Shown here: positions 1 to 18,378 of the stretch, piece after piece
Position numbering within the stretch: position 1 is the stretch's first letter
How the letters are laid out: the number at the start of each line of letters is the position of its first letter
Source: a virus
Lineage: Duplodnaviria; Heunggongvirae; Uroviricota; Caudoviricetes
Length of the DNA stretch: 64,000 nt
Strand: one strand, 5' to 3'
Virus record (IMG/VR): IMGVR_UViG_2541047879_000001
Position numbers and translations under genes: made by a program
Notes under the pieces: model-generated
What the model saw: only the letters and a program-made list of their open reading frames with translations
Told to the model about the DNA's origin: nothing
The model's database searches: none

Positions 1-796
1 TCAGTTTGCGGATCAGCGCCTGGTCTGTGCCGAACGCTGCCGAGCCGGGGTTATATGACCAGCCCACATCCGGTGTCATGGTTCTGGTGCCATCTGAATA
101 TGTGGTCACCGGCATTTCTCTGACTTCTCCGGTCTGTTTATCCACGCCAGCCTCAACATTGCGGGTGGAGAGATGATCCTCACCGGATGAAACGGATAAC
201 CCCATTGCATCCAGACGGGCCTGAGACAATGGCCGCACACGGCAGCGACAGTTCCAGCCATTGGGCGGGTAGTGAGTATTCCAGAACGGATCATCATAGC
301 GGAATACCAGCCCGTTAAGGGCGGAATGTGCCGGGCGGGTGCGGCTGTCCATCACCGCCACATACTGCCAGAACGGATGCGTGTCCGTGTTGTTCATCAT
401 CTGCGTGTAACGCCCGGCATTGTAAGCCACACGGGTGTTCACGTTGTAAATCAGCGCCAGACGGCGGGGGCTGCCAAGCTGCACTTCTTCCGCGTTCCCT
501 GCACTGTCCACCACAATCTGCTTTCCCCACCATCCCAGCTTTTGCAGGCGGGGTGTCAGCGTGCGGATAAATGTTTTCTGTGAAATGCCCTCATCAACAG
601 CACGCTGCACTTCCGCCTGTAGTGTGGTCAGTACGTCCAGGCGTGCCACTTTTGCCGCCGTGAATGAACGGGCATGAACATCCGCGTCTGTTTCGAACCA
701 GTTCCAGCTGATATGCTCCCCTTTGGCGCGGAAGTATGCCACCGCCTCTTTTGAGGGAAGCGTGGCGGCATAACCTAAATCAATCCCCTGTGTCAT
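1..796 (-). CDS. Mu F-like head morphogenesis protein (partial, C-terminus beyond window start)
   Basis: Own reverse-strand translation from ATG 796-794: MTQGIDLGYAATLPSKEAVAYFRAKGEH... with ...RPAHSALNG...YPPNGWNCRCRV motif typical of the Mu F / SPP1 gp7 family; frame open to position 1; not in ORF track because it runs off the window. Confidence 0.7.
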   Translation of the reverse strand, partial: MTQGIDLGYAATLPSKEAVAYFRAKGEHISWNWFETDADVHARSFTAAKVARLDVLTTLQAEVQRAVDEGISQKTFIRTLTPRLQKLGWWGKQIVVDSAGNAEEVQLGSPRRLALIYNVNTRVAYNAGRYTQMMNNTDTHPFWQYVAVMDSRTRPAHSALNGLVFRYDDPFWNTHYPPNGWNCRCRVRPLSQARLDAMGLSVSSGEDHLSTRNVEAGVDKQTGEVREMPVTTYSDGTRTMTPDVGWSYNPGSAAFGTDQALIRKL

Positions 797-2378
797 CCAG
801 CATCCCCTTCATTTCCGCAGCGAACATGGCATCACTGAGCAGCGTCATCAGGCGGGAATCATCCATTTCACGATAAAGGGCAGGCAGGTCTGCCAGCGCA
901 TCCGCCAGCCCCCGCGTTCTGATGGCATCAATGACCGGCTCCAGTACCGGGTCGATGGCCTCCTGTAAGCGGCGGGCAGGCACCGCGTCCCCCATATCAT
1001 CCAGTTCATCACGCGGCGTGCTTTTCGCTTCCGGCAGTCTGGCTGACAGCGCCGTCTGCTCTGTTTTTTCCTGTTTTTCCGGTGGTGTTTCCCTGTCGGT
1101 CTGAGCCGGTTCATTGCCACTCTGACGGACACGGAATATGGCTTCACCGGGCGTGGGCTGCGGAATACCGGTCTGCTCCCGTATCCAGGGATCAGAAATA
1201 TCCATCCCCGTACTGAGCTGCATCACCGCACTGGTGATTTTGGTGATATCACCTGGTTCTTTGGTCTGGAAGCAGATACGTGGCAGACGGCGGATATCAA
1301 TAGTGTGCGTGGTGTTCAGGGCGTACAGCGGATACACCAGATCGCGGTTCAGGGTTGCAGCCAGCTGCCGTAAATCAGAATCCCTGATTTCCCGGCGCAC
1401 CTCGTTATGCACCTCACCCAGCGAGCGCGCGCCTTTGTCTCCGGCTTCCGTGGTCAGCGTGCCGCCGAGTATTGCTTTGGAGATGGAACGCTCCCCCCAC
1501 GAAATCATGGTTTCAAATGGATCGGCCTGACCGTTTGCTGCCGCCTGAAATTCCAGCGACATCCCGGCCGGGATGATCCCGCCTGTACGTCGCCCGATAT
1601 CCATCACCGCCCGCATCAGGGCGCTTTTCTGCTCCGGTGTTGCCCCGGACGGGTATTTCCCGACCTTCATCGGCAGTCCGTACACCTCCAGAAATTCGGC
1701 CAGATCGCGCACGGAATAGTTTTTGAAAATGAACGGCCAGATAAGCGTCCTGACAAGCCCCGTTGCGCCACCGTAACCGGTCCGTGAACGTGACTGATGC
1801 ACTATCCAGCCAAAAGGCTGAAACGCCACCCCGGCATGGCTGCCGTCACGCAGCCGCAGTTCGCTCAAATCATCCGGGTTAAGGCAGAAATGCCCGCTGT
1901 CACGCCAGCGGATGGCGCGGATGATGTGCATTTTACCGAGCATCCCGTGCTCAATTTCCATGCAGGAATAGCCCTTCAGGATGGCATCCGTGGCGTCAAA
2001 CAGCATGGCATCAAACCAGTCTGCGGAATGCAGATATTCGTCGAGCATTTCCGCGTCCTTTTTCTCATTCGCGCTGGCGTTCGGTGGCGGCTCAATACTC
2101 CATGGCACCCCCTGAATGGCAAGACGTCGCTTGCCCAGCTCCGCAAAAAGGTGGGTGTCCTTTTCTTCAATGTCAGCCGCCAGATCGGACTGGGCAATCA
2201 GGTCGCCACGTTCAGCCCCCCGAAGGCACTGCGCCGCCCGGTTCGGGGTGATACCCGAGGCGGGATGCTCAACATAACGGCTGGCAATCTGCGGAATATC
2301 CAGCGCGGTACTCTGCATCTCCGGGTCAAAGGAGAGAGGTTTTCCGTCAAGATCAATTATGCGTCCCACTACCAGCAC
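780..2378 (-). CDS. Portal protein (Mu gp29/H-like, DUF935 family)
   Basis: 532-aa ORF; N-terminus GRIIDLDGKP and overall similarity to Mu-like portal proteins; sits between terminase large subunit and F as in Mu. Confidence 0.8.
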   Translation of the reverse strand: MLVVGRIIDLDGKPLSFDPEMQSTALDIPQIASRYVEHPASGITPNRAAQCLRGAERGDLIAQSDLAADIEEKDTHLFAELGKRRLAIQGVPWSIEPPPNASANEKKDAEMLDEYLHSADWFDAMLFDATDAILKGYSCMEIEHGMLGKMHIIRAIRWRDSGHFCLNPDDLSELRLRDGSHAGVAFQPFGWIVHQSRSRTGYGGATGLVRTLIWPFIFKNYSVRDLAEFLEVYGLPMKVGKYPSGATPEQKSALMRAVMDIGRRTGGIIPAGMSLEFQAAANGQADPFETMISWGERSISKAILGGTLTTEAGDKGARSLGEVHNEVRREIRDSDLRQLAATLNRDLVYPLYALNTTHTIDIRRLPRICFQTKEPGDITKITSAVMQLSTGMDISDPWIREQTGIPQPTPGEAIFRVRQSGNEPAQTDRETPPEKQEKTEQTALSARLPEAKSTPRDELDDMGDAVPARRLQEAIDPVLEPVIDAIRTRGLADALADLPALYREMDDSRLMTLLSDAMFAAEMKGMLDDTGD

Positions 2379-4033
2379 CCCCGTTCAAATTCATGATATG
2401 CCTCATCGTCATCACGATAACCGCCCTCCATTGCCCGCGACCGCTCCGGCAGCGCCTGACAGGCTGATTCATCCAGGATGAATCCCTCCATGTATGACGC
2501 CCGGTTTGCCATACAGAGTGCCACGGCAAAATCACCATGGCGGCGGGCGTTCGCAGCCGTTGCGTTCTGGTCCTTCGTGCGCCCCTTGTCGATTTGCGGG
2601 ATACCATTCACCACCTTCACATGGCGCAAATCATCAAGCGTGGTCTGATGGCGGGCGACGAGGATATTCTGATCTTCAAACTCGGCTTTCAGTTTTGGCA
2701 TCCACTCGCCGTACCACTTCGGCGACAACATCACGCAGTCGATGATGTCCGGGCCAAAGGCCAGCAGTGCGGCTTCTGCCAGATAGCCGCCGTTACCGGT
2801 GGCGTCGAACGCCGCACCGACCAGCGCCGGAACGCGGGTCAGGATGTACATCATCACCTGTTCCTGCTGGGCATACGGCAGGTTGCGCAGCTCCACGCGA
2901 AACACCTCGCGCTTTGCCAGGGATTCGGTGATTTCCAGCAGCACAAAGCAGGACAGGTCACCGGTGCGGGCAAAGTCTTCCCCGAAGCTGAAGCGGGAAC
3001 GGGGATTTAATTTCTCTAAAAGCGGTTTTAAATGTTCTTCACACCAGGTTAAAACTTCCGATTCACGCAGCCATGCGGCACGGCTGATGAAGTTGTCCGG
3101 GGCTTCAAACGTCAGAATCGGGATGTCGCGGATCATCGCCATTTCAATAAGCGCGTGAGGAATATAGGCACCGCCGGATTTTTTCGGGATACAGCCGTAT
3201 TCCTCGTCGGCATCCTCACGGGTCGGGGCGTTTTTGTAGAGATCATCACGCCATTTCTGCTCGCTTTCCGGTGACCATTCCTGATCGGTGACGTAACAGA
3301 TACGACGGTACAGCCCGTCCGCAATGGCATCATCCAGGGTTATGCGGTGGACGCTGTAATCCTTGCGCCCCTCGCGGGCTTCCTGAATGTACTGATTAAA
3401 CAGATTATCGACGCCGTTATGCGTGGAGATAATACGCACGCGCGCGCCCCACATAGTGAGCGCCATTGCCGCCTTGAGAAGCTCATCCAGTGACTCGTGG
3501 AACGCGGCTTCATCAATCACCACATCCCCCTGAAGGCCGCGCAGGTTTGACGGACGGGAAGACAGTGCCTGAATTTTGAATCCACTGTTCGGAAAGCGGA
3601 TCATGTAGGTCAGAATTTCTTCTTTTTTATCCCGATCCCAGAAGGTCTGCTCATACACATCAGCATCCGCCAGCTGGTTAAAGGCGCGGGAGAACAGGGC
3701 GCAGGCAGAAATATATTCCAGCGCCATCTCCTGCTTTGATCCCACATAAAACACATTGCGGCCACCACGACGCTTCGGTTTTGCAGCAGTAATGACGTTA
3801 CGCCCGGCTTCCGCCCAGGTAAGACCGGTGCGGCGGGATTTTTCCGCAATGCAGACCTGACTTTCATCCTCAAACCAGCGGGCCTGATAATCCAGAAACA
3901 CCGGCATATCACCGGGCAAATCAAGTCTGTCCGGCACATCCACGCCCAGCAGGGCTTTTTCACCGGACAGATCAATTTTGCGGGGAGGCGTCATTTGTAT
4001 CAGTGAAGGAGACGTTTCTTTGGCTTTGTTCAT
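2369..4033 (-). CDS. Terminase large subunit (Mu gp28-like)
   Basis: 554-aa ORF directly upstream of the portal gene with 10-nt overlap; ATPase/nuclease-sized; Mu gene order. Confidence 0.75.
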   Translation of the reverse strand: MNKAKETSPSLIQMTPPRKIDLSGEKALLGVDVPDRLDLPGDMPVFLDYQARWFEDESQVCIAEKSRRTGLTWAEAGRNVITAAKPKRRGGRNVFYVGSKQEMALEYISACALFSRAFNQLADADVYEQTFWDRDKKEEILTYMIRFPNSGFKIQALSSRPSNLRGLQGDVVIDEAAFHESLDELLKAAMALTMWGARVRIISTHNGVDNLFNQYIQEAREGRKDYSVHRITLDDAIADGLYRRICYVTDQEWSPESEQKWRDDLYKNAPTREDADEEYGCIPKKSGGAYIPHALIEMAMIRDIPILTFEAPDNFISRAAWLRESEVLTWCEEHLKPLLEKLNPRSRFSFGEDFARTGDLSCFVLLEITESLAKREVFRVELRNLPYAQQEQVMMYILTRVPALVGAAFDATGNGGYLAEAALLAFGPDIIDCVMLSPKWYGEWMPKLKAEFEDQNILVARHQTTLDDLRHVKVVNGIPQIDKGRTKDQNATAANARRHGDFAVALCMANRASYMEGFILDESACQALPERSRAMEGGYRDDDEAYHEFERGCW

Positions 4034-4281
4034 CAGGCTTTACCTGTCAGAATGCTTTTGATTCGGAACTCAAGCTCTTCAGTCATCACGTCCACGCCAC
4101 TCAACTCATCAGTGACAGCCTCTGCCAGCAGCGAATGCAGTTGTTCCAGGGATATTTCCCCGGCAATGCTGAGTTCAGTCAACTCACGACACGCTTTTAT
4201 GGTTTCAGGAGGTAACTGTGTTGCAAGACTGAATGCCTTCTGATGAGCACTACTCATCAGTGAGCGGTTATCTGTTACCAC
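4033..4281 (-). CDS. Small phage protein sharing a C-terminal motif with the upstream DUF3486-like protein
   Basis: 82-aa ORF ending ...AVTDELSGVDVMTEELEFRIKSILTGKA, paralogous to the C-terminus of the 193-aa protein at 4292-4873. Confidence 0.5.
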   Translation of the reverse strand: MVTDNRSLMSSAHQKAFSLATQLPPETIKACRELTELSIAGEISLEQLHSLLAEAVTDELSGVDVMTEELEFRIKSILTGKA

Positions 4282-4291
4282 GATTCACCTC

Positions 4292-4873
4292 CTACGCCTT
4301 ACCAAGCAGCATCTGCCTGATACGGAATTCTATCTGCTCGCTCATGCCATCCACGCCGCGCAACTCGTCGGTGACGGCGTTCGCCATCTCTTCAGCAAAT
4401 GCGGCCCGGATTTCTTTTTCACGCTTAATGCTGCGCTCGGCGGCACTTTCCGCACGCTGTGCCGACAGGAGGATGTCCTTAATAAGGCGCATATCCACAT
4501 CGCTGTCGCTGTTCAGGGATTCGGTGGCAGCACGCAGACGGCGGTACATCAGGGCGCGGGACATTTCCAGAATCAGTGCCGTGGTTTCACCGGTCGGCTT
4601 GTCCCCCAGTTCGGCCATCATGGCTTTTGTCTGCTCGCGTAAATCACGCAGGTTACGGGCAATCAGCTCATTACGGGAGGCCTCCCGGCTGATGGCCGCC
4701 GGTGAAAGCTGCTGCTCTTCCGGCAGACCCGCCTCACGGATCAGGCGGTTGATTTCCTCGCGGATCTGGACCTGCGTCAGGCGTTTTTCACGCAGCATTT
4801 CCAGCAGCGGCTTACGGATGCTGTCGGGGAGCAAATCCACCTTGCGTACACGGCCACGCGTTGGCTTATCCAT
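4292..4873 (-). CDS. Mu gp27-like protein (DUF3486-like; putative terminase small subunit)
   Basis: 193-aa ORF immediately upstream of terminase large subunit; N-terminal basic/HTH-like region; Mu synteny. Confidence 0.55.
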   Translation of the reverse strand: MDKPTRGRVRKVDLLPDSIRKPLLEMLREKRLTQVQIREEINRLIREAGLPEEQQLSPAAISREASRNELIARNLRDLREQTKAMMAELGDKPTGETTALILEMSRALMYRRLRAATESLNSDSDVDMRLIKDILLSAQRAESAAERSIKREKEIRAAFAEEMANAVTDELRGVDGMSEQIEFRIRQMLLGKA

Positions 4874-4875
4874 CG

Positions 4876-5166
4876 TTACCCCCTTGCGCGTGGTTTCTTC
4901 ACACCCGGAACGGTGGCGCGGCCTTCCGCCACATCCTGACCCCGGCCGGTCAGTTCAACGATGAAATAACCGTTAACAAGCGTGCGCTTACGCACCAGTC
5001 CCTGCTCGGCAAGCCAGGCAATATGGGTATGCACGGTGTCGCGGGACACGCGGTGGCCGTAATCATCCAGGCAGTCCTGAAGCACGGATTCGCCCAGTTC
5101 GCCGTTGTAATCCGCCAGCGACCGCAGAATGACAAGACGCTGATCTTCAGTAATGAAATCACTCAT
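4876..5166 (-). CDS. Mu gp26-like phage protein
   Basis: 96-aa ORF in operon, position equivalent to Mu gp26. Confidence 0.45.
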   Translation of the reverse strand: MSDFITEDQRLVILRSLADYNGELGESVLQDCLDDYGHRVSRDTVHTHIAWLAEQGLVRKRTLVNGYFIVELTGRGQDVAEGRATVPGVKKPRARG

Positions 5167-5470
5167 TGTGTTTTTTCCTTACAGCCTGCTCCAGCAGCAG
5201 TTCGTTCTGGTGGGAGACGGATTTCAGGGTGGCATTGGTGGCCTTAAGCTCACCGCGCAGGGTGGTGATTTCGATATTGAGTCTGTTCACCTCCTGCTGC
5301 GTGGGCAGGCCGGAAATCCGGCTCTCCACCCGCTCAACCCGGTCGGAGAGTTTTTCAAAGGCCTCGCGGGGGACAAAGGTTTTGCGCATCAGCGCCATAA
5401 AGATCCCCCCGGCCGTGGCCGTTGCCGACAGGATCGGCACGACATAATCTTTAACGATGCTGATCCACAT
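5159..5470 (-). CDS. Small membrane/coiled-coil phage protein (Mu gp25-like)
   Basis: 103-aa ORF with N-terminal hydrophobic segment (ILSATATAGGIFMALM) followed by coiled-coil-like sequence. Confidence 0.45.
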   Translation of the reverse strand: MWISIVKDYVVPILSATATAGGIFMALMRKTFVPREAFEKLSDRVERVESRISGLPTQQEVNRLNIEITTLRGELKATNATLKSVSHQNELLLEQAVRKKHNE

Positions 5471-5678
5471 GACCGGCCTCCATGATGCTCTGGCAGTTCA
5501 CACAACGGATGGCATCCGGCACGGCAACCAGACGGGCGGCCGGAATGTCACCCCCGCAGTCTGCGCATACACGCCTGCCCGGAGTATCCTCCACCCGGCA
5601 CTTACGTGTCAGCCGGTCACAAAGGGCGCGTTCTGTTGCCCGCTCCATGACTGCCTGAGCACAATCTGAATCATCCAT
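5451..5678 (-). CDS. TraR/DksA-family C4 zinc-finger protein
   Basis: CADCGGDIPAARL...CVNC motif; start chosen at ATG 5678 (MDDSDCAQ...) preceded by AAGGA; the track ORF extends to 5744. Confidence 0.6.
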   Translation of the reverse strand: MDDSDCAQAVMERATERALCDRLTRKCRVEDTPGRRVCADCGGDIPAARLVAVPDAIRCVNCQSIMEAGHVDQHR

Positions 5679-5688
5679 ACCTTTTTCC

Positions 5689-6060
5689 TTACTTCGTCTT
5701 TCCTGCCGGAACAGCAGACGTTCCGGCCATATCAGTAAATTCATGCTGTCGCCGTACCTCCAGACGGCGGATGCTGGCCTTGTCCACGTTGCAGTTCTTA
5801 ATCACCGCCAGCAGTTGCAGGTTGTAAGTGACCGATGCGCCAAACGTGAACGGCTGCGGCACAGAAGGGACCAGACAGTCAGCCAGCCATTCAGCGGGGA
5901 TCGGCACCGGCTTCACCGGCACGTATTTCACAGACGGCCCGCCGCACCCGGTCAGCCACATCATCAGGCACAGGAACAGCGGCCGCAGGCACCGTTGCCA
6001 GCGACCGGCGGACAATGCTCTGCTGTTCCTCGCTGTGCTGCATGTTCTGCTGTTTTTCAT
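5689..6060 (-). CDS. Putative o-spanin (Rz1-like outer-membrane lipoprotein)
   Basis: Frame overlapping the 3' end of the i-spanin candidate; basic n-region, hydrophobic core and lipobox LTGC, proline-rich mature part; start uncertain (6060 or 5964). Confidence 0.4.
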   Translation of the reverse strand: MKNSRTCSTARNSRALSAGRWQRCLRPLFLCLMMWLTGCGGPSVKYVPVKPVPIPAEWLADCLVPSVPQPFTFGASVTYNLQLLAVIKNCNVDKASIRRLEVRRQHEFTDMAGTSAVPAGKTK

Positions 6061-6241
6061 TCGTGGCCGCCTTACTGATTTGTGAAATGAGTTGCAGGGT
6101 GCGTTGCTGGTTTGCCAGCACCAGACGGGCTTCGTCCCGTTCACGCACAAGCACATGATTATTGTCCTCAAGGCGCTGCGTCTTCTGGTGCATTCCCCAT
6201 ACCACGGCAGCCAGCACACTCATCACCCCCAGCGCCGCCAT
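5891..6241 (-). CDS. Putative i-spanin (Rz-like)
   Basis: Start at ATG 6241 preceded by GGAGG 4 nt upstream; N-terminal TM segment MAALGVMSVLAAVVW then coiled-coil-like periplasmic region; downstream of endolysin. Confidence 0.45.
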   Translation of the reverse strand: MAALGVMSVLAAVVWGMHQKTQRLEDNNHVLVRERDEARLVLANQQRTLQLISQISKAATNEKQQNMQHSEEQQSIVRRSLATVPAAAVPVPDDVADRVRRAVCEIRAGEAGADPR

Positions 6242-6353
6242 ACAGCCTCCGGCAATCAGGGCTGGTAAGGGATTATTCACCGCAGCCACAGCACACCCCG
6301 CAGCACCACAACAGCACACAGCAGCGCAATCATGAGCGGTCGCCAGAAACGGT

Positions 6354-6854
6354 TCAGACTTTCGGCAAGTCGTAACGACATAACCATTCATCCGCCGAAC
6401 GGCGGGCCTCAAGACCGGGGAGTTTCACCCCCTTTGAATAAATCCAGCGGATATACTGCTTACAGGACGCGGGCATCTGCCCGGCATTGATAAGGCGCAG
6501 GAGCGTGGAGTTGCGAAAGTTCGTTTCACCGGCCCAGAAAATCCAGGAGGCCAACGCCACCGTCTGACCACGGGTAAGCGGCACCTGAACATGACGATCG
6601 ATAGCCGCAAAGGCCCATTTCATGTCCTTTTCCAGCAGCTCCAGACACTCTTCATCAGTTTTTGTCATCCCCGGTTTCACATCCGGGCCGGTATGGCCGT
6701 AACAGATGGTGGGGGTGCCGGTGGGATCAATGTACGTGGTGTTTTCTTTCCCTTCCCAGTAGCCGGTGTAGTGCGTGGCAATGGTGAACGTCCCGGCTCC
6801 GGCCAGAACAAGGGCAATCAGCTTTTTACGCAGGGGTGCGGGGAGTTTTGGCAT
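6354..6854 (-). CDS. SAR endolysin (phage lysozyme, GH24-like)
   Basis: 166 aa; N-terminal signal-anchor-release-like segment LIALVLAGAGTFTIA and catalytic region TICYGHTG resembling phage 21 R-type lysozymes. Confidence 0.8.
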   Translation of the reverse strand: MPKLPAPLRKKLIALVLAGAGTFTIATHYTGYWEGKENTTYIDPTGTPTICYGHTGPDVKPGMTKTDEECLELLEKDMKWAFAAIDRHVQVPLTRGQTVALASWIFWAGETNFRNSTLLRLINAGQMPASCKQYIRWIYSKGVKLPGLEARRSADEWLCRYDLPKV

Positions 6855-6925
6855 TGTTACGCTGTCTCATGGTGTTCTCTGAGTCAGCGTAACCGTGGGA
6901 AAAAGTGGGCAGGATTTGCGGAATA

Positions 6926-7348
6926 TCAGAAAAGCCGGGGCTGCGTGCGTTCCTGATGCAGGCGGCGCTGGTTACGGATAACGGAGTAAATCTGCGTCTC
7001 TGACATCTGGTAGTGGCGGCGCAGGGTTTCAATTTTTTCGCCCTGGCTCCAGCGGGAAAAAATCTCATTATTGCGCAGTTCGGTGAAAAGGGATTCACCG
7101 ACCGGGAGATAATAACCACGCCCGCCCATGTACCCGGCCTGTGCGGCCGCAACTTTACGGGCAAGCATTCCCGCCTGAGCAGGTTCAATCCCCTGACGGT
7201 GCAGTTCAGCACTGATCACATCAACCAGGTCCCGCAGCGTGCCGGGCCAGTTCTTTTTCAGCTCATCATCAGGAATATCATCCAGACGGTCAATCAGCGC
7301 GTGCAGCTGTTCGCTGTCACCAAACATGCTCATCTGTGTTTCAGCCAT
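6926..7348 (-). CDS. Mor/C-family transcriptional activator
   Basis: 140 aa; C-terminal HTH region IETLRRHYQMSETQIYSVIRNQRR resembles Mu Mor/C; located between GemA-like gene and lysis genes. Confidence 0.7.
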   Translation of the reverse strand: MAETQMSMFGDSEQLHALIDRLDDIPDDELKKNWPGTLRDLVDVISAELHRQGIEPAQAGMLARKVAAAQAGYMGGRGYYLPVGESLFTELRNNEIFSRWSQGEKIETLRRHYQMSETQIYSVIRNQRRLHQERTQPRLF

Positions 7349-7418
7349 ACCCGCCTCCGGTCATCATTACACAGGGCAAGTTTAAAATAAAAATCCCGCG
7401 CTGTGGCGGGATTTGGAG

Positions 7419-7931
7419 TTAACGGGGGAATGATTTTTCATACAGCCTGCAAACGCGCTCATAACTTATCACTGTACGCGCTGACATCCCCAGCACATCC
7501 AGCATTTTGCGGCGGTGCCAGCGTTTGAGACGCTCCAGCACATCAGAGGCCAGTGCGGGGTGTTGCTCCAGCCACTGCCAGTTAGCCACACCTTCACCGC
7601 CGTTCTGCGCGGCCGTCTGCGATTTCACCCAGCGGTTAATGGCGTTTTCCCCGCCATCAGCGATAAAGCCCTGCCGGTGCATCACTTTCCAGATGGCGCG
7701 AATTTTGGCGGTCACCGTCCCCGGTTTTAAGGCCCGGTTAACCGGCTTCTGACGCACTTTAAAACCGCGTTTTTTGAAAACATCCAGCACGCGGGATAAC
7801 TCATCCGGTGACATATCCCGGCAACTGGGTTTGCCGGTGGCTGCCAGTAGTACGGATGTGTAGGTCTCATGGTCAAGCTGTAGATCGCGTTTTGCGACAT
7901 GTATTAAGGTAATCAGGGAAGCGCGATTCAT
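7419..7931 (-). CDS. GemA-like protein (Mu gp16 family)
   Basis: 170-aa ORF immediately upstream of the Mor-like gene, Mu synteny. Confidence 0.55.
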   Translation of the reverse strand: MNRASLITLIHVAKRDLQLDHETYTSVLLAATGKPSCRDMSPDELSRVLDVFKKRGFKVRQKPVNRALKPGTVTAKIRAIWKVMHRQGFIADGGENAINRWVKSQTAAQNGGEGVANWQWLEQHPALASDVLERLKRWHRRKMLDVLGMSARTVISYERVCRLYEKSFPR

Positions 7932-7995
7932 TATCGTGTCTCCGTAACAACAGGCGGCATGGCAACGCCGCCCGGATAAAACTAAAGGTATCGAT

Positions 7996-8676: not shown

Positions 8677-8691
8677 TATTCACCTGCCTGC

Positions 8692-9916: not shown

Positions 9917-9919
9917 ACA

Positions 9920-10435: not shown

Positions 10436-10968
10436 TACGCCACCTCCGCAGATATCCCGGCAGGCGCTGCTGTCCGGTCAACAATCAGGTAGCGCAGAAC
10501 ACGCGCGGTGATATTCCAGCCGCTTAAACCGCAGATGATGACACCCAGGCGAATGTCGATATACGCCATCACAAACTGGGGCACGCCTTCTTTCATGGCC
10601 TGCTCATCAACTTCAGCCACCACATAAACGGTTTCACAGGTCAGAACGCCCTGAGCAAATTCCCACGCCATCGACGGAATATCATGCCCCTCAATCCATG
10701 GCAGGGATTTTCTGAAGCTGCACCACTGAACATCATCAGCCGCAGATTCCTGTCTGCATTTGCGACGAATCGGCTGCACCGGGCGGGGACGCGGAATATC
10801 ATAAAAACCGTTACATTCCGTCAGCACCCCGGCATCAACCGCATCACGCAGAAAATAAACCATGGAGGATGGCGGCATATTCATTTTTTCAGCCAGTACG
10901 CCGCAGGTCAGACGCCCGTAAATACTCAGCCAGTTTTTAACCCCTTCAAGCACTTTTGCATCAATCAT
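10435..10968 (-). CDS. Hypothetical protein (possible winged-helix N-terminus)
   Basis: 177-aa ORF; start overlaps upstream stop. Confidence 0.45.
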   Translation of the reverse strand: MIDAKVLEGVKNWLSIYGRLTCGVLAEKMNMPPSSMVYFLRDAVDAGVLTECNGFYDIPRPRPVQPIRRKCRQESAADDVQWCSFRKSLPWIEGHDIPSMAWEFAQGVLTCETVYVVAEVDEQAMKEGVPQFVMAYIDIRLGVIICGLSGWNITARVLRYLIVDRTAAPAGISAEVA

Positions 10969-10971
10969 GAA

Positions 10972-11514
10972 TTATTCCTCCGTCAGCGCCACATATTCAG
11001 AATGTTTAATTTCCTGGCATTCTTCAGGAATACATCCGTTTATTTCCCTGCCATAAGCGCCCACTTTAAACACCACGCACAGGGCATCACGGGAGAACGA
11101 AGGGGTCCACCAGGAGTCCGTGTTAAACATGGAGGGGATTCTCATTACCCCCAGCTTTTCACAGAGCCAGACAAGGAAATCAGGACGCTTTCTTAACTCG
11201 CGTTCAGCGGCTTCAATCATTGCGGCAATCGCCGGTCCTTCAGGGCATGACTCATCAGGTCTGGCTATAAAGCACTGTCCGCCACCGATAAAAGCCACAT
11301 CATCGCGCTTACGCCAGCCCGCAGGCAGAGCACCGGCAAAATAAAACTCACTGATTCTGTCCATGGCGAACGGCTTTAAGCGCAATCCGGCAGCGCCTGT
11401 ATTTTTCAGTAATGTCCGAAGAATACTGTTGCGTAGCGGTAAAACAGCCTGTTGATATTTGGTGAAATATTTATTTGTCTGCACACGGTCTAATTTGAAA
11501 TAAAAATATGCCAT
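10972..11514 (-). CDS. Hypothetical protein
   Basis: 180-aa ORF downstream of Gam-like gene. Confidence 0.45.
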   Translation of the reverse strand: MAYFYFKLDRVQTNKYFTKYQQAVLPLRNSILRTLLKNTGAAGLRLKPFAMDRISEFYFAGALPAGWRKRDDVAFIGGGQCFIARPDESCPEGPAIAAMIEAAERELRKRPDFLVWLCEKLGVMRIPSMFNTDSWWTPSFSRDALCVVFKVGAYGREINGCIPEECQEIKHSEYVALTEE

Positions 11515-11611
11515 ATTTCCGATTCCTTATTTTCAGCTTTCAGGCGCAAGCAGTCCCCTGACGCGAGCGCCATAATTAAAATGAAGTGATATTTAAATAA
11601 TTAATGCGGTG

Positions 11612-12142
11612 TTATTTATTCAGTCCGGCATCCTGTTCAAAAGGCTCGACATAAAAACTTTCAGCGCCTTTATTCACCTTTATACCGGCAATGCCTTTCA
11701 CCGCATCCGGCTCCGCCAGGACGGCTTCCTTGTTCACTTCCTCTTTCGTGCGGATGAATCGCTCAAGCCCCATACGGCGCAGCGTGTCAATCACACCTTC
11801 CACATCACGGCTGACGCTGCATGATGGCGTTCCCAGCCGCCATGACACCGTTCCGGTGGTCAGATTGGCAGTTTTGGTTTTGCCGCCGTTCGTCAGCTCA
11901 TCACGGTTGGTTTTACACCAGTCCTGAATCCCTTTAAAAAGCACTTTGATTTGCTTTTTAAGATTTTCAATCTGCGGCGTATAACGGGCGGTGATTTCTG
12001 CCACTTCATCATTCATCGCCGTTTCCAGGCGCAGCGCCTCTCGCTGAATATCGCCCAGGGTGCGGATATCGCGGCTGACTTCTTCGCGGGTCTGCGGTGC
12101 GGCCTCGGCTACAGCCTTTAATTTTGTAACGCGTTTTGCCAT
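11612..12142 (-). CDS. gam: Gam-like host-nuclease inhibitor (Mu Gam family, DNA end-binding)
   Basis: 176 aa; strong similarity to Mu Gam across the whole length (e.g. RLETAMND..., CKTNRDELTNGGKTKTANL, RFIRTKEEVNKEA). Confidence 0.85.
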   Translation of the reverse strand: MAKRVTKLKAVAEAAPQTREEVSRDIRTLGDIQREALRLETAMNDEVAEITARYTPQIENLKKQIKVLFKGIQDWCKTNRDELTNGGKTKTANLTTGTVSWRLGTPSCSVSRDVEGVIDTLRRMGLERFIRTKEEVNKEAVLAEPDAVKGIAGIKVNKGAESFYVEPFEQDAGLNK

Positions 12143-12153
12143 TTTGTTTTTCC

Positions 12154-12474
12154 TTATTGCAATGTATCTGGTGCGTTCTGCAAGGAGCGGCGCTCAATGC
12201 TGCTTTTCACCCCCAGAGCCTGCATGGAACCCTGAAGTTCATCTGTCAGAAACTGAATAATTGTGGGGCTGTGATATTTAAGAATTTGCGCATAAACATC
12301 ACATGGGCCTGTCGGTCTGTTCTCCGTATCACGTTCGATTTTTACAGTGGCAGTAACCCCCTCCGTGATTTCCTGACTATCATTACCGGCTGGCTTTACT
12401 TCATGCATTACGTGGTTAAATTCAAAAATAACGCGTACTTTGCTCATGGAATTACCCCTGCTGATTAAATTCAT
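12154..12474 (-). CDS. Hypothetical small protein (paralogous N-terminus with 12452-12724)
   Basis: 106 aa, starts MSKVRVIFEF. Confidence 0.4.
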   Translation of the reverse strand: MNLISRGNSMSKVRVIFEFNHVMHEVKPAGNDSQEITEGVTATVKIERDTENRPTGPCDVYAQILKYHSPTIIQFLTDELQGSMQALGVKSSIERRSLQNAPDTLQ

Positions 12475-12724
12475 TACCGTTAATAACCCCGGAAGCCATG
12501 CCCCTGTCTTTCATGAATGCACTGGCTTTCATTGCCACAAGCTCTGCGAAGTTTCTGCTTTCCGCGAGCATAACCCCCCCAAAAATCATGGCGGGTCCAT
12601 CACCTTTCTGCTTTATCCCGGTTGAACGTATGTCCAGACTTACCCCCATGCGCACTGTTCCATCAGCGTTTTTATGGATAACGTGCTCCTTATATTCGAA
12701 AATAATGTGTACGACTTTACTCAT
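12452..12724 (-). CDS. Hypothetical small protein
   Basis: 90 aa, starts MSKVVHIIFEY. Confidence 0.4.
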   Translation of the reverse strand: MSKVVHIIFEYKEHVIHKNADGTVRMGVSLDIRSTGIKQKGDGPAMIFGGVMLAESRNFAELVAMKASAFMKDRGMASGVINGNEFNQQG

Positions 12725-13002
12725 CCTCTGGTCCTCGTTCTGTTTGGATAACTGACCCGGCGTCTGACCTCACGGCAGAACCGAATCATGGCATTAAAGG
12801 CTTCTTCCTCCGTCACCGCTTCCGGTATCCCCGGAACCAGTAACTGCTCCTGTTCATCACGTCCATGACGCGCCATAACCTCAATCACATGCCGTACCGT
12901 GGCAGGCTTTCCGGCAACTATCGGCAATGCACCTTCCGGCAGGACGTAACCAAACTCAATAAGACCACTCGACCACGCCCATGCAATGAGATTTTTTTTC
13001 AC
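12721..13002 (-). CDS. Hypothetical small early protein
   Basis: 93-aa ORF, coupled (overlapping stop/start) in early operon. Confidence 0.35.
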   Translation of the reverse strand: MKKNLIAWAWSSGLIEFGYVLPEGALPIVAGKPATVRHVIEVMARHGRDEQEQLLVPGIPEAVTEEEAFNAMIRFCREVRRRVSYPNRTRTRG

Positions 13003-13003
13003 C

Positions 13004-13270
13004 TCACACCTCCCAGTAAACCGTGCAGCCGCTGATGCGGGTGGCCTTCACACGGCGGCGCAGGCCGTTGGTCTGTATGGTGATTTCAATTTCACCGGTT
13101 CCCTGCACGTTGCCTACCGGCGGCGTGGTTTTCAGTGCAAAACGTTGCGGATAGCGCTTACTGCGTTCCAGTACCGCACCGGCAAGTTCGGTCAGACGGC
13201 GCGCGCTGTTCAGGGAGTCGAATAAATTCATTTTGTTACCGCAGGATTGCATATTCATATAACACCTCAT
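13004..13270 (-). CDS. Hypothetical small early protein
   Basis: 88-aa ORF in tightly packed operon. Confidence 0.35.
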   Translation of the reverse strand: MRCYMNMQSCGNKMNLFDSLNSARRLTELAGAVLERSKRYPQRFALKTTPPVGNVQGTGEIEITIQTNGLRRRVKATRISGCTVYWEV

Positions 13271-13498
13271 TTAGCTGACTTGTTTCGCACCAACAGAACG
13301 GCATATTCCGCTGTAAACTTCTGTCGCACCTTCGCGATCAAGTCCGGCAGATATCACCATTCGTGTGCGGTCATTAAATTCAAAAAGTAAATCGCCACAT
13401 TCTTTATTTTCGGCCAGTGAAATCACCTTCACGTTATCGAAATTAACCAGGTAAAAGCGTCCGTAAATATCAGGAATATTAAATACCGCCATAATCAC
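13271..13498 (-). CDS. Hypothetical small early protein
   Basis: 75-aa ORF directly downstream of B-like gene. Confidence 0.35.
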   Translation of the reverse strand: MIMAVFNIPDIYGRFYLVNFDNVKVISLAENKECGDLLFEFNDRTRMVISAGLDREGATEVYSGICRSVGAKQVS

Positions 13499-14436
13499 AC
13501 CTGTGAGAGTAATTCAGGGTTGGTATAAACCTCTTTAAAGGCCGCATTAATATGTTTTTCTGTCAGCGCCGCGCCTTCACCGCTGGCGGTGAGCCACGCC
13601 TGGTTAAGCGTATGTGTCAGAACGCGTAACGCTCCCGGCTTTTCAGCGATAGCCTGCATGACGGCCAGCTCGGCCTCACCACTGATCCCCCACGCCATGG
13701 CAATGGCCAGCACATCCGCCTTTTTGGCCTTGCGAAGTTGTTTTGTACGGGCAAGACGGCTGAACAGGCGCGATAAATCATCAAAGGCGCGGCGTCCACC
13801 TTTAAACAATCCGCGCGGGTTACCAATAAGCACCATCCCGATCCCCGTGGCGTCCTGAATTGCCCGGAGTTGCTCCAGACCGTCAATACCAAGATGATCC
13901 GCCTCATCCACAATCACCAGTCCACGCGTTCCCATCAGGCGACGGCGGATGGCGCGGGATAATGCCCCTTTGTTCGCGCGGGTGTAATCAATCCCCAGCG
14001 CATCGGCCAGCTCCAGCAGACACTCCGTGACGCTGGAGTGCGCGGGTGACAGGGTGATCATCCAGGTGTTTGGTTGCTCCTGGCAGTAATTACGGGCAGT
14101 GGCCGTTTTACCCACACCCGGTACGCCCACAATAACGTTAATACAGCCCATCAGGCGAACCGCCTGAAACAGTGCGCGCAGCTCCTGGACTGTCTGAGTT
14201 TCCACAAACTGCGGCGGTTCCGGCAGTGCGCTTTGTTTATTCCAGTTCTCATACCAGGAGCGCAGGGAAGCAGCCACAGCAGCGTTATCGCCTTTATATT
14301 TTCCCTTACGGAAAGCCGATAATGTGCCGTCGGAAATTCCCGCCTCTCTGGCGATGGCATACTGCGTCAGTACGCCGCCATCAATAAGTTCATCAATGGT
14401 CTTGATTACATCGTTAATATCGGTCATATTATTCAC
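13495..14436 (-). CDS. MuB-like transposition ATPase (target DNA activator B)
   Basis: 313 aa; Walker A GVPGVGKT; near-colinear similarity to Mu B (PEPPQFVETQTV..., GLVIVDEADHLG...). Confidence 0.85.
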   Translation of the reverse strand: MNNMTDINDVIKTIDELIDGGVLTQYAIAREAGISDGTLSAFRKGKYKGDNAAVAASLRSWYENWNKQSALPEPPQFVETQTVQELRALFQAVRLMGCINVIVGVPGVGKTATARNYCQEQPNTWMITLSPAHSSVTECLLELADALGIDYTRANKGALSRAIRRRLMGTRGLVIVDEADHLGIDGLEQLRAIQDATGIGMVLIGNPRGLFKGGRRAFDDLSRLFSRLARTKQLRKAKKADVLAIAMAWGISGEAELAVMQAIAEKPGALRVLTHTLNQAWLTASGEGAALTEKHINAAFKEVYTNPELLSQV

Positions 14437-14509
14437 CTCGCTTGAGACAGCATTCTCCGAGACTGAAACCTCAAATAACCTGAGTCACCCCTCGGGTTAT
14501 TTTTTTATT

Positions 14510-16600
14510 TCAGGCCAGCGGATCACTTTCTTTTAATTTCGCTTCGAGCAACTGCAATCCCCGCTGGAAATTACGCTCGTATTCTTCATCAGGTTCATCG
14601 TCAGCGACCGGTTGCTGAACGGTCACCGTATTACCCACAGGGCGGTATATGTTTTCCAGCCAGGGCTCCTGCGGCTTGTGCTCCAGCACGTTGACAACCT
14701 CATCCTCGGCATCACGGATTTTTTCCTCTGCGCGTTTACGCATGCCTTTAAGGCGCTGCTGCTGTTTGTAGTATTCCGCGCTGACAGGGAAGGCTTCGCG
14801 TTTATTGCCGTCCCATACCGCCTCGCAAATCACGCTGCCATCCGGGCGGCGCACGGTAATTCGTTCGGCATCATGAATGTCATAGCTGATAAGTACCTTA
14901 CGGCCATGCTCGTCACGCAGCTCGGGCGCGTAGTAAATATTATTCAGCCAGCGTATTTCACAGCGTCTTACAGGGCGCTCCACCATCGGCCGGAACATAT
15001 CCCGCAGTTCAACATCGGACAGCCATTCAATTTCCGTGTCCTCTTCCGCCAGGCGTTTTTTTCTGAACTCCGCCGGGCTGTAATGTTTACCGTTCGGCTT
15101 CATGGGTAATTCATCGTGCGGCCGGTTGTTGTACCACTCAACACCGTCACGAATGGCATCAATCAGTTCAGACCAGGACGGTAAATCACGCATCGCTGAC
15201 TGCTGCCGGGCGTTCAGCCGTTTGCCCTGTTGCAGGGCACTGAATGCCGAGCGTAAATCGCGGTTGGTTTTACGTAACGTCTCGCGATCTGCTCCTTTCC
15301 CGAAATAGGTGCGGTATTTACGGGCTATGCGCATCGGTAATGTGCGGTTAAGCCGTTCGATAATGCCCCGTCCCTGCGGATTACCGGCAATCCCTGTCGG
15401 GTGATTAATCCCCAGTCGTGGCAGTATCCCCACAATCTCCTTATCCAGGACGTCGGCGGTTTCCCCGGAGCCATTATCCGAGTAATACAGAAACGGTTTG
15501 CCATGATGGCGAATACCGTGCTGTATGGCACCGGCTACGGCGAAAACATTTTCAGCCAGGTCAAGGCTCCAGCCCACCACAAAGCGCGTGCCACCGTCGA
15601 TAACAAAGGTCACTTCCGGTGCGAATGGCCGCCCGTGAACCGGGTGCGCGCATTTCAGCTTCATGCCGTGACCGTCACCAATCCAGACATAATTCACCGG
15701 CATTCTGGACCAGTCGCGGCGCGTGAATCCCTCAAGCTGACGGTATTCACTGCCAGTTACCCGGCCTTTTTGTTTCACCACTTCCGGCAGTTTCTTCATT
15801 GCGCGGCGAATGGTGTCATAAGAGGGCATGATATCGAGCATATAAGGCTCATCAGCGTGCCGGTGCTGCCATTCAGCAACAAAATCCTCGTAAGCCTCGG
15901 TCATTGGTCGGCCGTTTGACTGGCGATACTGCGCCAGAAATTCGGGCAGCCAGTTAATATCTTCGGCTTTTATTTCCTGGCGTTTACCCGGTGCCAGTAA
16001 AAGCAGGCGTTCAGCGGCGTTCTGTGCCTTGTTAAAGGCCGCAATCCAGCGTTTCAGCGTGATTTCACTCAACGCGCGGCTGTTTCCCTTTTTGGCGTTC
16101 GCCGTCTCAACCATTGCCACAATGCGCTCGTCCAGTTGTGATCGTGCCAGGCTGTTAACGAGGAACCGGATAGCCTTAGCGCAACTAAAGCCGGGTTGTT
16201 GCGCGATTTTCAGCACCTCGCTGACGATCGCTATTCGTGCCTCTGCCACTTTACGTTGGTTTTCAGTCAGGGCATTGAGGCGTTCGACCATCAGTTGGGG
16301 TGATCCGCGATATGCCTCCACCGCATCAACCACGGCAGGTGAGCGTCTGGCCTTTGTCACCACCGGAGCCGGTGATTCATCGGCTTTTTGCGTCATCAGT
16401 TGCAGGGCGTAGCGTTCACGTAATGCCTGCTGCGTCACTTCAGGTAAACAGTCGATGCTGTATTCAGTTGCTTTAGAGCCTGAGCGACGACGGGAACAAC
16501 AGCTTTTCCCTTGTACGTAACGTTGTAATGCCTGGCGAATACCTTTTGTTGTAGCAGGCATTCCGGGCGCGCCAATCAGTTCTTTTGCAATGACATACAT
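14510..16600 (-). CDS. MuA-like DDE transposase
   Basis: 696-aa ORF between ner-like and B-like genes; size and position of Mu transposase A. Confidence 0.85.
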   Translation of the reverse strand: MYVIAKELIGAPGMPATTKGIRQALQRYVQGKSCCSRRRSGSKATEYSIDCLPEVTQQALRERYALQLMTQKADESPAPVVTKARRSPAVVDAVEAYRGSPQLMVERLNALTENQRKVAEARIAIVSEVLKIAQQPGFSCAKAIRFLVNSLARSQLDERIVAMVETANAKKGNSRALSEITLKRWIAAFNKAQNAAERLLLLAPGKRQEIKAEDINWLPEFLAQYRQSNGRPMTEAYEDFVAEWQHRHADEPYMLDIMPSYDTIRRAMKKLPEVVKQKGRVTGSEYRQLEGFTRRDWSRMPVNYVWIGDGHGMKLKCAHPVHGRPFAPEVTFVIDGGTRFVVGWSLDLAENVFAVAGAIQHGIRHHGKPFLYYSDNGSGETADVLDKEIVGILPRLGINHPTGIAGNPQGRGIIERLNRTLPMRIARKYRTYFGKGADRETLRKTNRDLRSAFSALQQGKRLNARQQSAMRDLPSWSELIDAIRDGVEWYNNRPHDELPMKPNGKHYSPAEFRKKRLAEEDTEIEWLSDVELRDMFRPMVERPVRRCEIRWLNNIYYAPELRDEHGRKVLISYDIHDAERITVRRPDGSVICEAVWDGNKREAFPVSAEYYKQQQRLKGMRKRAEEKIRDAEDEVVNVLEHKPQEPWLENIYRPVGNTVTVQQPVADDEPDEEYERNFQRGLQLLEAKLKESDPLA

Positions 16601-16601
16601 A

Positions 16602-16850
16602 TCATGACGCCTTTCTCATATAGCTCTTAACCTGGTATCGACTGGGCCAGATTTCTTCAGGTGATACCCCAAGAGCATCAGCAATTATTTGCTGATACGG
16701 TCGGCAAGGAGTACGTAATACGCTTTTCAGCGAATCCCTGCTGTAACCAGCCTTTAAAGATAAAGAGCGCAGTGATAAGCCAGCCATGTGTAAGCGCGCC
16801 TTGATGATTTCAGGCGGCCAATCGTGATCTGAAACTTCTCTTCTACTCAT
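16602..16850 (-). CDS. ner: Ner-like DNA-binding protein (Ner/Nlp family)
   Basis: 82 aa; C-terminal IIADALGVSPEEIWPSRYQ matches the Ner signature. Confidence 0.8.
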   Translation of the reverse strand: MSRREVSDHDWPPEIIKARLHMAGLSLRSLSLKAGYSRDSLKSVLRTPCRPYQQIIADALGVSPEEIWPSRYQVKSYMRKAS

Positions 16851-17041
16851 ACTTCCTCTATTCTAAAAAGTTACCCGCGCGGATATTCGTGCGGATATCT
16901 GTACGGGTAAATAATGCATCACCAAAAATACCAAATCAAGGTATTTTTGGTATTTTTGGCTAATTTTTGCTTTTATCCTTATTTTTCAATTGGATAAATA
17001 GAAAGAAACCTTTCCTTAGAAAAGCACCAAGAGGTATCTTT
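16851..17041. promoter_or_regulatory. Divergent early/repressor promoter-operator region between ner-like and c-like genes
   Basis: AT-rich 190-bp intergenic region with palindrome CCAAAAATACC (16922-16932) / GGTATTTTTGG (16940-16950) plus an extra direct copy TATTTTTGG. Confidence 0.4.
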
Positions 17042-17572
17042 ATGTCGCAGGGAAAAGAACCTGTTATTGAACGTATTGGAATGCTTACAAAGCGCTACCC
17101 TTCAAGAAGTGCAGCTGCCAGAGCGTGGGGAATCAATATCAACACATTAAACAGCTATTTCAAGGGAGGACAAACACAACCAGCCCCCAGAGAAAGTATC
17201 CTTATACGAATTTCTGAAAGTGAAGGCGTTAGTCTTGAGTGGCTTAAAGAGGGCAAGGGTGAATTACCAAACGATATTGGTATTTATGGTAATTTTGGTT
17301 GTTCTGGTGATAAGGGAGATCAGCTTACACAGATGCTTTCATTCCTTACGAAAGACGAACGAGAACAGTTAACCAATCTCCTTGCTCGCAAAGGTGTAGA
17401 GACGGTTCTGACACTGCTGAATAAAGAAAACCAGGATTTATTACAACTAGAAGGCAGGAAGCGCCTGGCTGCGTTGATGATTGTAGATATGCCAGACGAT
17501 TGCGTCAGAGAGATTTTGGAAAAAACCGAGACAAGTAGGCAATCAAATCCGGTAGAATCTAAAGCGGGTTAG
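17042..17572 (+). CDS. Phage repressor (Mu c-like, HTH DNA-binding)
   Basis: Start at ATG 17042 (MSQGKEP...) with AAGAGG 7 nt upstream; divergent from ner/A/B as in Mu; track ORF starts further upstream at 16967. Confidence 0.6.
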   Translation: MSQGKEPVIERIGMLTKRYPSRSAAARAWGININTLNSYFKGGQTQPAPRESILIRISESEGVSLEWLKEGKGELPNDIGIYGNFGCSGDKGDQLTQMLSFLTKDEREQLTNLLARKGVETVLTLLNKENQDLLQLEGRKRLAALMIVDMPDDCVREILEKTETSRQSNPVESKAG

Positions 17573-17764
17573 TTTGGCGAGGCTGGCCCGTATGTTAGTT
17601 GCCATATAGATTTAATGAAGTTTTAAACGCTTTAAAAAGTTGAGATCGCAGTATCAAAAGTTTTGCCGATTTTAGAATAAACGATTAATTATTGCACAAT
17701 CGATATCAAATAGACTTTAAGCGCTCATCCAGACATCACCTGTTTTATTTCAGTATCTTACAGG

Positions 17765-17822
17765 TGATTTCACCTCCTTTCACTAAAACCCTCGTTGGTA
17801 TCAAATGATTCACCTGGTTACA
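17765..17822. repeat. Prophage left end with transposase-binding-site-like repeats
   Basis: TGATTTCACC (17765-17774) and TGATTCACC (17806-17814), resembling the Mu A-site core TGNTTCAY, within 60 bp of the junction; dbpA reading frame resumes at ~17823. Confidence 0.5.
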
Positions 17823-18330: not shown

Positions 18331-18378
18331 TGAAATGTTGAATTGCCGGGTGCAAGAGTAAACATCTTATTCGGGATT

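Follow-up and report, generated by a model that had tools for sequence, protein, structure and literature searches.

The 64,000-nt stretch of DNA analysed here (the window) enters dbpA, the gene for a DEAD-box helicase specific for 23S rRNA, in mid-frame and directly beside phage genes, which raises the question of what broke this gene and by which route. The initial annotation, made from the letters alone, proposed a Mu-like transposable prophage sitting inside dbpA, with its left end near 17820 and the dbpA frame resuming at once. As shown in Table 1, a Mu gene set occupies the phage side, the phage ends at 17822 and dbpA runs from 17823, in agreement with that proposal.

Comparison with uninterrupted K-12 dbpA gave ~99% identity from nt 867 to the stop codon, window 17823-18330 corresponding to nt 867-1374 of the 1374-nt gene. 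The fragment therefore begins at the last base of codon 289 and comprises motif V onward together with the C-terminal RNA-binding domain, with two amino-acid differences from K-12 (IVPLE versus IATLE). The gene is whole in K-12 (b1343) and is split here after nt 870; given that CGGT is dbpA nt 867-870, the break lies at codon 289/290. A blastn search of the whole window with K-12 dbpA nt 1-869 gave no match, as expected from the annotation that no 5' part is present. The K-12 neighbourhood is otherwise kept, with ttcA and then a Rac-type integrase (intR) downstream. This Rac-type prophage lies 1.6 kb from the Mu-like prophage, at its fixed site beside ttcA. The flank from 17823 to 42000 is 99.9% identical to strains with intact dbpA, and intact dbpA carries a single CGGT at the insertion point.

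The phage side of the junction was placed by comparison with other genomes. In over 200 further E. coli genomes, matches to a 2-kb junction query end at query positions 1023-1034 (window 17822-17833), and past the phage end those genomes carry unrelated genes (~230 complete genomes). The phage sequence opens, in minus-strand orientation, with TGTAACCAGGTGAATCATTTGATACC..., its terminal base being window 17822, and 11 independent left ends all start TGTAACC after a variable base. Elsewhere the same left end adjoins ypdB, citF, rhsD, nadB, sorM, tail genes and others. The same end beside unrelated genes in ~230 genomes is what is expected of transposition, which upholds the earlier suggestion that insertion within a coding sequence fits random Mu-type transposition.

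Table 1. Features of the prophage, its left end and the interrupted dbpA gene (window coordinates).
Feature	Position	Strand	Basis
Prophage, left ~45%	1..17822	-	93-100% nt identity to prophages annotated Mu-like; Pfam domains of Mu genes
Head-morphogenesis (gpF-like) gene, 5' part	1..796	-	Position of annotated gene in JE86-ST02; cut by window start
Mu-type portal	780..2378	-	PF06074 Portal_Mu, E 4e-93
Large terminase, 554 aa	2369..4033	-	78% DNA identity to annotated terminase large subunit genes of Pseudomonas Mu-like phages
Endolysin	6354..6854	-	PF00959, E 1e-36
Mor middle-gene activator	6926..7348	-	PF08765, E 7e-31
GemA/gp16	7419..7931	-	PF06252, E 6e-28
Gam host-nuclease inhibitor	11612..12142	-	PF07352, E 7e-42
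MuB-like AAA+ transposition ATPase	13495..14436	-	PF09077 Phage-MuB_C (E 8e-25), AAA_22
MuA-like DDE transposase, 696 aa	14510..16600	-	PF09299 Mu-transpos_C (2e-17) and PF02316 Mu DNA-binding domain, above cut-offs
Ner-like early regulator, 82 aa	16602..16850	-	PF13693 HTH_35, E 2.5e-19
Repressor-position gene, 176 aa	17042..17572	+	Position equivalent to Mu c; transcribed towards phage end and dbpA'
Candidate site L3, core (TTTGATAY, TTTGATAC)	17651..17658	-	Position 165 from end
Candidate site L2, core (TTTGATAY, TTTGATAT)	17703..17710	-	Position 113 from end
Palindrome GGTGATTTCACC holding second TGATT(T)CAC motif (17765-17773)	17763..17774	.	Left end only
Candidate site L1, core (TTTGATAY, TTTGATAC)	17798..17805	-	Positions 18-25 from end; same word at same distance at right terminus
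First TGATT(T)CAC motif (TGATTCAC)	17806..17813	+	Overlaps or abuts L1; no right-end counterpart
Phage left terminus, 5'-TGTAACC	17816..17822	-	Identity to other genomes ends there
CGGT, downstream copy of 4-bp target-site duplication (dbpA nt 867-870)	17823..17826	+	Single CGGT in intact dbpA
dbpA 3' fragment	17823..18330	+	Alignment to K-12, translation, PF03880 DbpA domain

The DNA at window 1-17822, taken along the minus strand, belongs to a Mu-like prophage of Sp18 type and makes up its left part. Sp18 itself, also Mu-like, was originally reported from E. coli O157:H7 Sakai. The whole element measures ~39-40 kb in relatives, the remainder lying upstream of the window, and the window's phage part is 93-100% identical at the nucleotide level to ~230 E. 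coli prophages. Its gene order is that of Sakai Sp18 and of Sp18-like 'Mu-like phages' from STEC. Over the window's 17.8 kb their identity ranges from 93% (LC727881, in which the Mu-like insert Mu_JNE082796 covers 96% of the phage part) to 100% (JKHS016, identical over the left 16.9 kb), and they have identical termini, TGTAACC...GCGCTATA, with 4-bp duplications. The window prophage differs from them only by its site in dbpA and by the usual mosaic differences, such as that from JKHS016 in the window's opening 905 bp, over which the JKHS016 copy is rearranged. In the literature Sp18 is described as intact, packaged, not circularised and variable in location (PMC2669165, PMC7430833, PMC10132054); packaging of its DNA without circularisation was reported in PMC2669165, and the variable chromosomal locations of Sp18-like prophages include sites within genes and within other prophages (PMC2669165, PMC10132054). 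The element is an already known type of prophage. The window holds a full-length ORF for every gene annotated in relatives, and given that no gene in this part is broken, the copy may still be active.

The prophage shares with Mu the order repressor, ner, A, B, gam, mor, lysis and head. Its MuB-like ATPase is 48% identical to Mu B over 300 aa, in contrast to the transposase, which is collinear with Mu A over its full length (E 9e-11) at just 22% identity. At the DNA level no identity to Mu is detectable outside the portal/F region, and the sole match to D108 and SfMu is 570-590 bp at 72% identity. The transposase core was matched weakly, as rve/retroviral-integrase-like, and aligns with the DNGS...ER of RSV integrase; D309, D375 and E415 are its putative catalytic residues. 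PF02914, which we take to be Pfam's Mu transposase core family, gave no reported match in the transposase even at E<=5. The 554-aa large terminase had no Pfam match. Given that the 176-aa protein likewise had no significant Pfam match, its predicted repressor function follows from its position; an identical protein adjoins Ner and MuA in many genomes. Beside the right end is a Mom-like protein, with a cluster representative 96% identical. In the broad sense the element is therefore of the Mu kind, with a MuA-type DDE transposase, an adjacent MuB ATPase, repeated candidate end sites and many unrelated insertion sites, and it is of Sp18 type by nucleotide identity and collinearity, termini and 4-bp duplication. 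It does not belong to Mu proper (genus Muvirus), from which its type of duplication and termini set it apart, and neither Mu nor D108 is closely related to it in sequence.

The target-site duplication departs from the 5 bp anticipated in the initial annotation: it is 4 bp (CGGT). Complete family members, Sakai Sp18 included, provided seven end pairs, all with 4-bp duplications (TAAG, CATC, TTCG, GATA, CCCC, TAAA and ACCG), and a duplication of 5 bp is excluded in four of these, neither possible fifth base matching. The family termini are 5'-TGTAACCAGGTGAATCATTTGATACC ... CGCCGCGCTATA-3', of which the left was read in the window and the right in relatives and in a metagenome contig (UMCU01026389.1). 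The right terminus, ...CTATA, ends in TA rather than CA. Insertion is quasi-random with a short duplication in both Mu and Sp18-type phages, whereas Mu has a 5-bp duplication and TG...CA termini. The 4-bp stagger may be intrinsic to the transposase. Searchable papers held no statement of a 4-bp duplication in Sp18-type phages, and it was met with only in a single GenBank record, as a 4-bp 'duplication' feature given without explanation. From the weakly detected rve-like core, the 4-bp stagger and the TA right terminus, we put forward only tentatively, and with some doubt, that Sp18-type phages might be a mechanistic variant of Mu transposition.

We next consider the candidate transposase sites. 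TTTGATAY has 10 matches in the window, three of which lie within 155 bp at the left end in a single orientation. Measured from the termini, the word occurs at 18, 113 and 165 on the left and at 18, 40 and 75 on the right (the right end being that of relatives), giving three copies per end, inverted between the ends. This common motif would provide candidate transposase sites. Mu also has three sites per end, and the spacing of L1-L3 and R1-R3 is much as in Sp18-type ends, but the site sequence differs, being ...TTCAYT...CGAAA in Mu, whose left end was read for comparison. Six putative transposase sites are ascribed to Sp18 in one paper, which cites earlier work (PMC2628397). The two MuA-site-like motifs that had been noted within 60 bp of the end, TGATT(T)CAC, are both present (17806-17813 and 17765-17773) but are not common to both ends. 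The word does not occur within 290 bp of the right terminus, for which reason we rejected it as the end-shared motif, and its orientation relative to the terminus is opposite to that of similar words in Mu L1. Given both observations, its copies are probably not transposase sites common to the two ends.

The other end of the prophage lies upstream of the window, and the junction predicted there, GTTTTGCTAACGGT joined to TATAGCGCGGCG, has one verbatim occurrence, in the metagenome contig UMCU01026389.1. This contig runs from dbpA codons 1-290 through CGGT to the phage right end (...GCTAACGGT followed by TATAGCG). Its host part, 1687 bp of zntB-ynaL-dbpA 5', is 99.6% identical to strain S40, and its phage part, 3079 bp of right end, matches the JKHS016 prophage at 99.97% identity. 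The initial annotation had looked for the dbpA 5' portion and a matching 5-bp duplication at this junction. Both parts of the junction are found, in a sample other than the window's assembly, and the duplication is of 4 bp; the contrary outcome it had named, an upstream end lacking dbpA 5' sequence or a matching duplication, is not what this contig presents. The two CGGT copies of dbpA thus come from two different samples. The contig's sample must be of the same lineage as the window. The window junction also occurs in CP056613.1 (a sibling, at ~304.7 kb), SRR28511713, ERZ27275899 and ERZ28624211; it was absent from complete RefSeq E. coli, neither junction was found in GTDB species representatives or IMG/VR, and no single assembly was found to carry both. 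Given the identical junction in several assemblies, the insertion is inherited.

Together these data support, with a probability of roughly 0.92, a model where an ancestor of the present E. coli strain acquired a temperate, transposable Sp18-group phage, which entered dbpA at codon 289/290 by DDE transposition. There is a small chance that the prophage is instead rearranged or one-ended in this genome, a deletion, inversion or exchange between Mu-like copies having parted its left end from the 5' part of dbpA. The window stops inside the phage, many E. coli carry 2-5 copies of the same phage end, and the closest relative, JKHS016, has an internal inversion and deletion, which indicates that rearranged copies of such phages exist. 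Against this, a clean dbpA-CGGT-right-end junction exists for this type of phage, the window's ORFs are all intact and collinear with complete relatives, and no second phage end lies within the window.

It is less probable still that the contig and the window represent two independent insertions at a hot spot in dbpA, which would make the contig uninformative about the window genome. Mu-type transposases do have weak target preferences, and dbpA has been independently disrupted elsewhere by IS or frameshifts: the 145-aa DbpA C-terminal ORF has its only exact-protein match in an IS-disrupted dbpA (GCA_000193935.2), and matches to a 99-aa version are frameshifted or fragmentary dbpA contigs. However, the two junctions fit to the base, sharing the 4 bp and their orientation, the phage sequence on both sides is the same near-identical variant, and none of the ~230 other copies in complete genomes is in dbpA. 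Use of dbpA as the attachment site of a site-specific prophage, by analogy with the neighbouring Rac-type prophage and its fixed site, is the least credible reading and is refuted by how varied the insertion sites are, the same element being found at dozens of unrelated ones. Its flanks are variable 4-bp duplications rather than an att repeat, and MuA and MuB are present but no integrase was found, whether in the portion of the element inside the window or among complete relatives. Annotation of complete copies names just one recombinase, a 'recombinase family protein' of invertase type next to the tail-fibre region.

These data allow us to hypothesise how Sp18-type transposition into dbpA took place. 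Following the Mu paradigm, the MuA-like transposase would bind the three TTTGATAY-containing sites at each phage end, pair the ends and join both 3' ends to target DNA that the MuB-like ATPase has captured. The joining itself is across a 4-bp stagger and, once repaired, leaves CGGT on either side of the prophage; an unrearranged insertion would place ...GCTAACGGT joined to TATAGCGCGG ~22 kb upstream of the window. Split in two, dbpA has a 5' piece of residues 1-290 plus 36 codons read into the phage right end, and a 3' piece keeping motif V and all that follows. The 326-aa DbpA-phage fusion protein had no separate protein cluster. We also considered read-through from the repressor gene as a means of expressing the DbpA C-terminal domain; this is speculation, the terminator- and promoter-like matches in 16500-18500 being weak and not above chance. 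DbpA is dispensable in the laboratory and its gene non-essential, and the insertion was therefore probably near-neutral.

A prophage in dbpA is an ordinary event, of little importance beyond annotation. It explains the dbpA pseudogene in this lineage, for which the dbpA::Mu-like junction is a precise marker, seen in several isolates and metagenomes, and it means that a transposable phage, apparently intact and potentially mutagenic, is present in the strain. For the prediction of junctions of Sp18-type phages, 4 bp and TGTAACC...GCGCTATA are to be expected, and not the 5 bp and TG...CA of Mu. If the 4-bp/TA variant is truly undescribed, these phages would lend themselves to comparative work on the way in which the stagger is set by transpososome geometry.

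To define the left junction we compared a 2-kb junction query with other genomes. More than 200 of these match only to query position 1023-1034, after which they continue into unrelated genes (ypdB, citF, rhsD, nadB and others), and all 11 independent left ends start with TGTAACC behind a variable base. Together these data place the phage terminus at window position 17822. From 17823, the sequence is ~99% identical to K-12 dbpA from nt 867 through the stop at 18330 and is followed, as in K-12, by ttcA and then a Rac-type integrase. The stretch 17823-42000 is 99.9% identical to strains with an intact dbpA, such as S40, and sequence comparison found the 5' part of dbpA nowhere in the window. The initial annotation had proposed a Mu-like prophage inside dbpA, with its left end at ~17820, dbpA resuming at once and no 5' portion in the window; this is supported on each point, and the identity of the element, its exact end and the split of dbpA are now established.

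The upstream junction was predicted from the right ends of relatives as, in window orientation, GTTTTGCTAACGGT joined to TATAGCGCGGCG, with 0-2 extra bases allowed. Neither this junction nor that of the window was found in species-representative genomes or in IMG/VR. In the metagenome collection, the predicted junction occurs exactly once, without an extra base, in contig UMCU01026389.1. This contig carries 1687 bp of zntB-ynaL-dbpA (codons 1-290), 99.6% identical to S40, and 3079 bp of phage right end, 99.97% identical to the prophage of strain JKHS016, which is the same phage variant as that of the window. Although they come from separate assemblies, the contig and the window rebuild dbpA with CGGT (nt 867-870) duplicated, providing the dbpA 5' sequence and matching duplication proposed as a check on the insertion.

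The window junction recurs in GenBank CP056613.1, with 99.95% identity over 6.5 kb and every difference inside the phage, and in Logan and ENA assemblies of other samples, indicating that the insertion is inherited in a lineage. The Mu-like end lies 1.6 kb from the start of a Rac-type lambdoid prophage (window 19446-about 46000; intR, xis, recET, kilR, sieB). The cargo of the Rac-type prophage, going by the annotation of strain S40 (99.9% identical), comprises an anti-phage dGTPase, an MBL-fold hydrolase, DUF4145 and hok. The Logan assembly SRR28511713 has the identical Mu-dbpA junction without the Rac-type prophage beside ttcA, where it instead carries Usp and porin genes (compared with window 19387 onward); the neighbouring prophage is thus variable within the lineage.

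The expected 5-bp target-site duplication was not borne out. The right terminus, read in five complete relatives and then in Sakai Sp18, ends ...CGCCGCGCTATA-3', and the duplications in these six are all 4 bp (TAAG, CATC, TTCG, GATA, CCCC and TAAA), as is that annotated in GenBank record LC727881. A 4-bp duplication and TA right terminus were found in 7/7 Sp18-type end pairs, Sakai Sp18 included, in contrast to the 5-bp duplication and CA right terminus of Mu. The loci compared were window 17823-17826, JKHS016 (NZ_CP147059.1) 2199-2203 and 34160-34163, and relatives' sequence pieces L015, L016, L008/L009, L002/L007 and L028/L029. We found no paper discussing the 4-bp duplication of Sp18-type prophages; one GenBank record annotates it.

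Each phage end carries three inward-facing copies of TTTGATAY, at positions 18, 113 and 165 on the left and 18, 40 and 75 on the right, the first site lying in identical register at both termini. TTTGATAY occurs ten times in the window, and three of these matches lie within the 155 bp that hold the left-end sites (L1-L3). The spacing of the end sites resembles that of L1-L3 and R1-R3 in Mu. The two MuA-site-like motifs noted initially, TGATT(T)CAC at 17806-17813 and 17765-17773, are present, but occur at the left end only and are not a shared end motif; they run opposite in orientation to similar words of Mu L1. The former abuts candidate site L1 and the latter sits in a perfect palindrome, GGTGATTTCACC (17763-17774), between L1 and L2. 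Half-sites related to this palindrome, GGTGAA and GGTGAT, lie 9 and 83 bp from the terminus and occur in the left end only. A published comparison credits Sp18 with six putative transposase sites (PMC2628397).

Gene calls and domain matches show that window 1-17822, read on the minus strand, corresponds to the early and middle regions of a Mu-like phage, with a full-length ORF for every gene annotated in complete relatives.

Genes of the Mu-like phage part of the window
Feature	Position	Strand	Remark
Repressor-position gene	17042-17572	+	divergent from remaining phage genes
Ner-like HTH	16602-16850	-	
Transposase	14510-16600	-	696 aa; Mu N-terminal DNA-binding and Mu-transpos_C domains
MuB-like AAA+ ATPase	13495-14436	-	
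Gam	11612-12142	-	
GemA	7419-7931	-	
Mor	6926-7348	-	
Lysozyme	6354-6854	-	
Large terminase	2369-4033	-	
Mu-type portal	780-2378	-	
gpF-like head gene		-	start only; cut by window edge

The MuB protein is 48% identical to Mu B. The transposase shares just 22% identity with Mu A, yet aligns collinearly over its full length (E 9e-11). Its catalytic core matches rve only weakly; judging from alignment with the DNGS...ER motifs of RSV integrase, the putative catalytic residues are D309, D375 and E415. An inverted repeat with a 12-bp stem (ACCAAAAATACC...GGTATTTTTGGT; 16921-16962), inside the 116-bp Ner-repressor intergenic region, is a candidate operator. Next to it, the window differs from its sibling CP056613.1 by a substitution and a 2-base indel (16960-16962); a SNP at 15123 in the transposase gene is the sole further difference in 6.5 kb.

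The element belongs to the Sp18 group. Prophages 93-100% identical to its 17.8 kb occur in 228 of 5,426 complete E. coli genomes, and the LC727881 region annotated 'inserted Bacteriophage Mu-like phage' is 93% identical. Relatives show the diversity of its sites. The closest, in JKHS016, is 100.0% identical across window 906-17822 at another chromosomal site, and is internally rearranged. That copy (NZ_CP147059.1, 2204-34159) lies inside a JAB/RadC-like gene of an unrelated strain and is internally inverted and deleted, with truncated portal, tape-measure and protease genes. This suggests that one phage variant spread very recently and then decayed in the JKHS016 host. The gene closest to the right end encodes a Mom-family adenine-modification protein and is preceded by Com, whereas in strain 89-3156 a DNA cytosine methyltransferase takes its place, implying exchange of the anti-restriction module within the family (loci compared: UMCU01026389.1 1816-2553, right end of the same phage type, and L015 38705-39757). 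In two relatives (L008 14384-14463, L016 23063-23150), RefSeq annotates a 'tRNA-OTHER' flanked by the gpF-like gene and the virion-morphogenesis gene; its position is ~540 bp outside the window, upstream of its start. In published work, Sp18 is described as a Mu-like prophage that appears to be intact and has DNA that is packaged without being circularised; its relatives occupy strain-specific loci, some within other prophages (PMC2669165, PMC7430833, PMC10132054).

By analogy with Mu, the transposase would assemble on the six TTTGATAY sites and attach the 3' ends of the phage to target DNA bound by MuB, with a 4-bp stagger between the joining points; later repair would duplicate CGGT. On translation, the 5' dbpA piece is predicted to encode residues 1-290 followed by 36 codons from the phage, and the 3' piece keeps everything from motif V on, together with the RNA-binding domain of DbpA. 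Because ttcA and dbpA are transcribed towards each other, the insertion should have no polar effect. Deletion of dbpA is not known to cause a marked phenotype, which fits the independent dbpA breaks seen elsewhere. These include an IS3-family element ~10-20 codons downstream of the insertion site (GCA_000193935.2) and frameshifts leaving 276-316-aa and 144-aa fragments (L042, L045-L049); dbpA appears to be often lost in E. coli/Shigella-like genomes. Prophages of this kind are ordinary and already known, and the site occupied here, though new, is unremarkable. Only one feature is mildly unusual: the Sp18 group as a whole does not follow the 5-bp, TG...CA rule of Mu.
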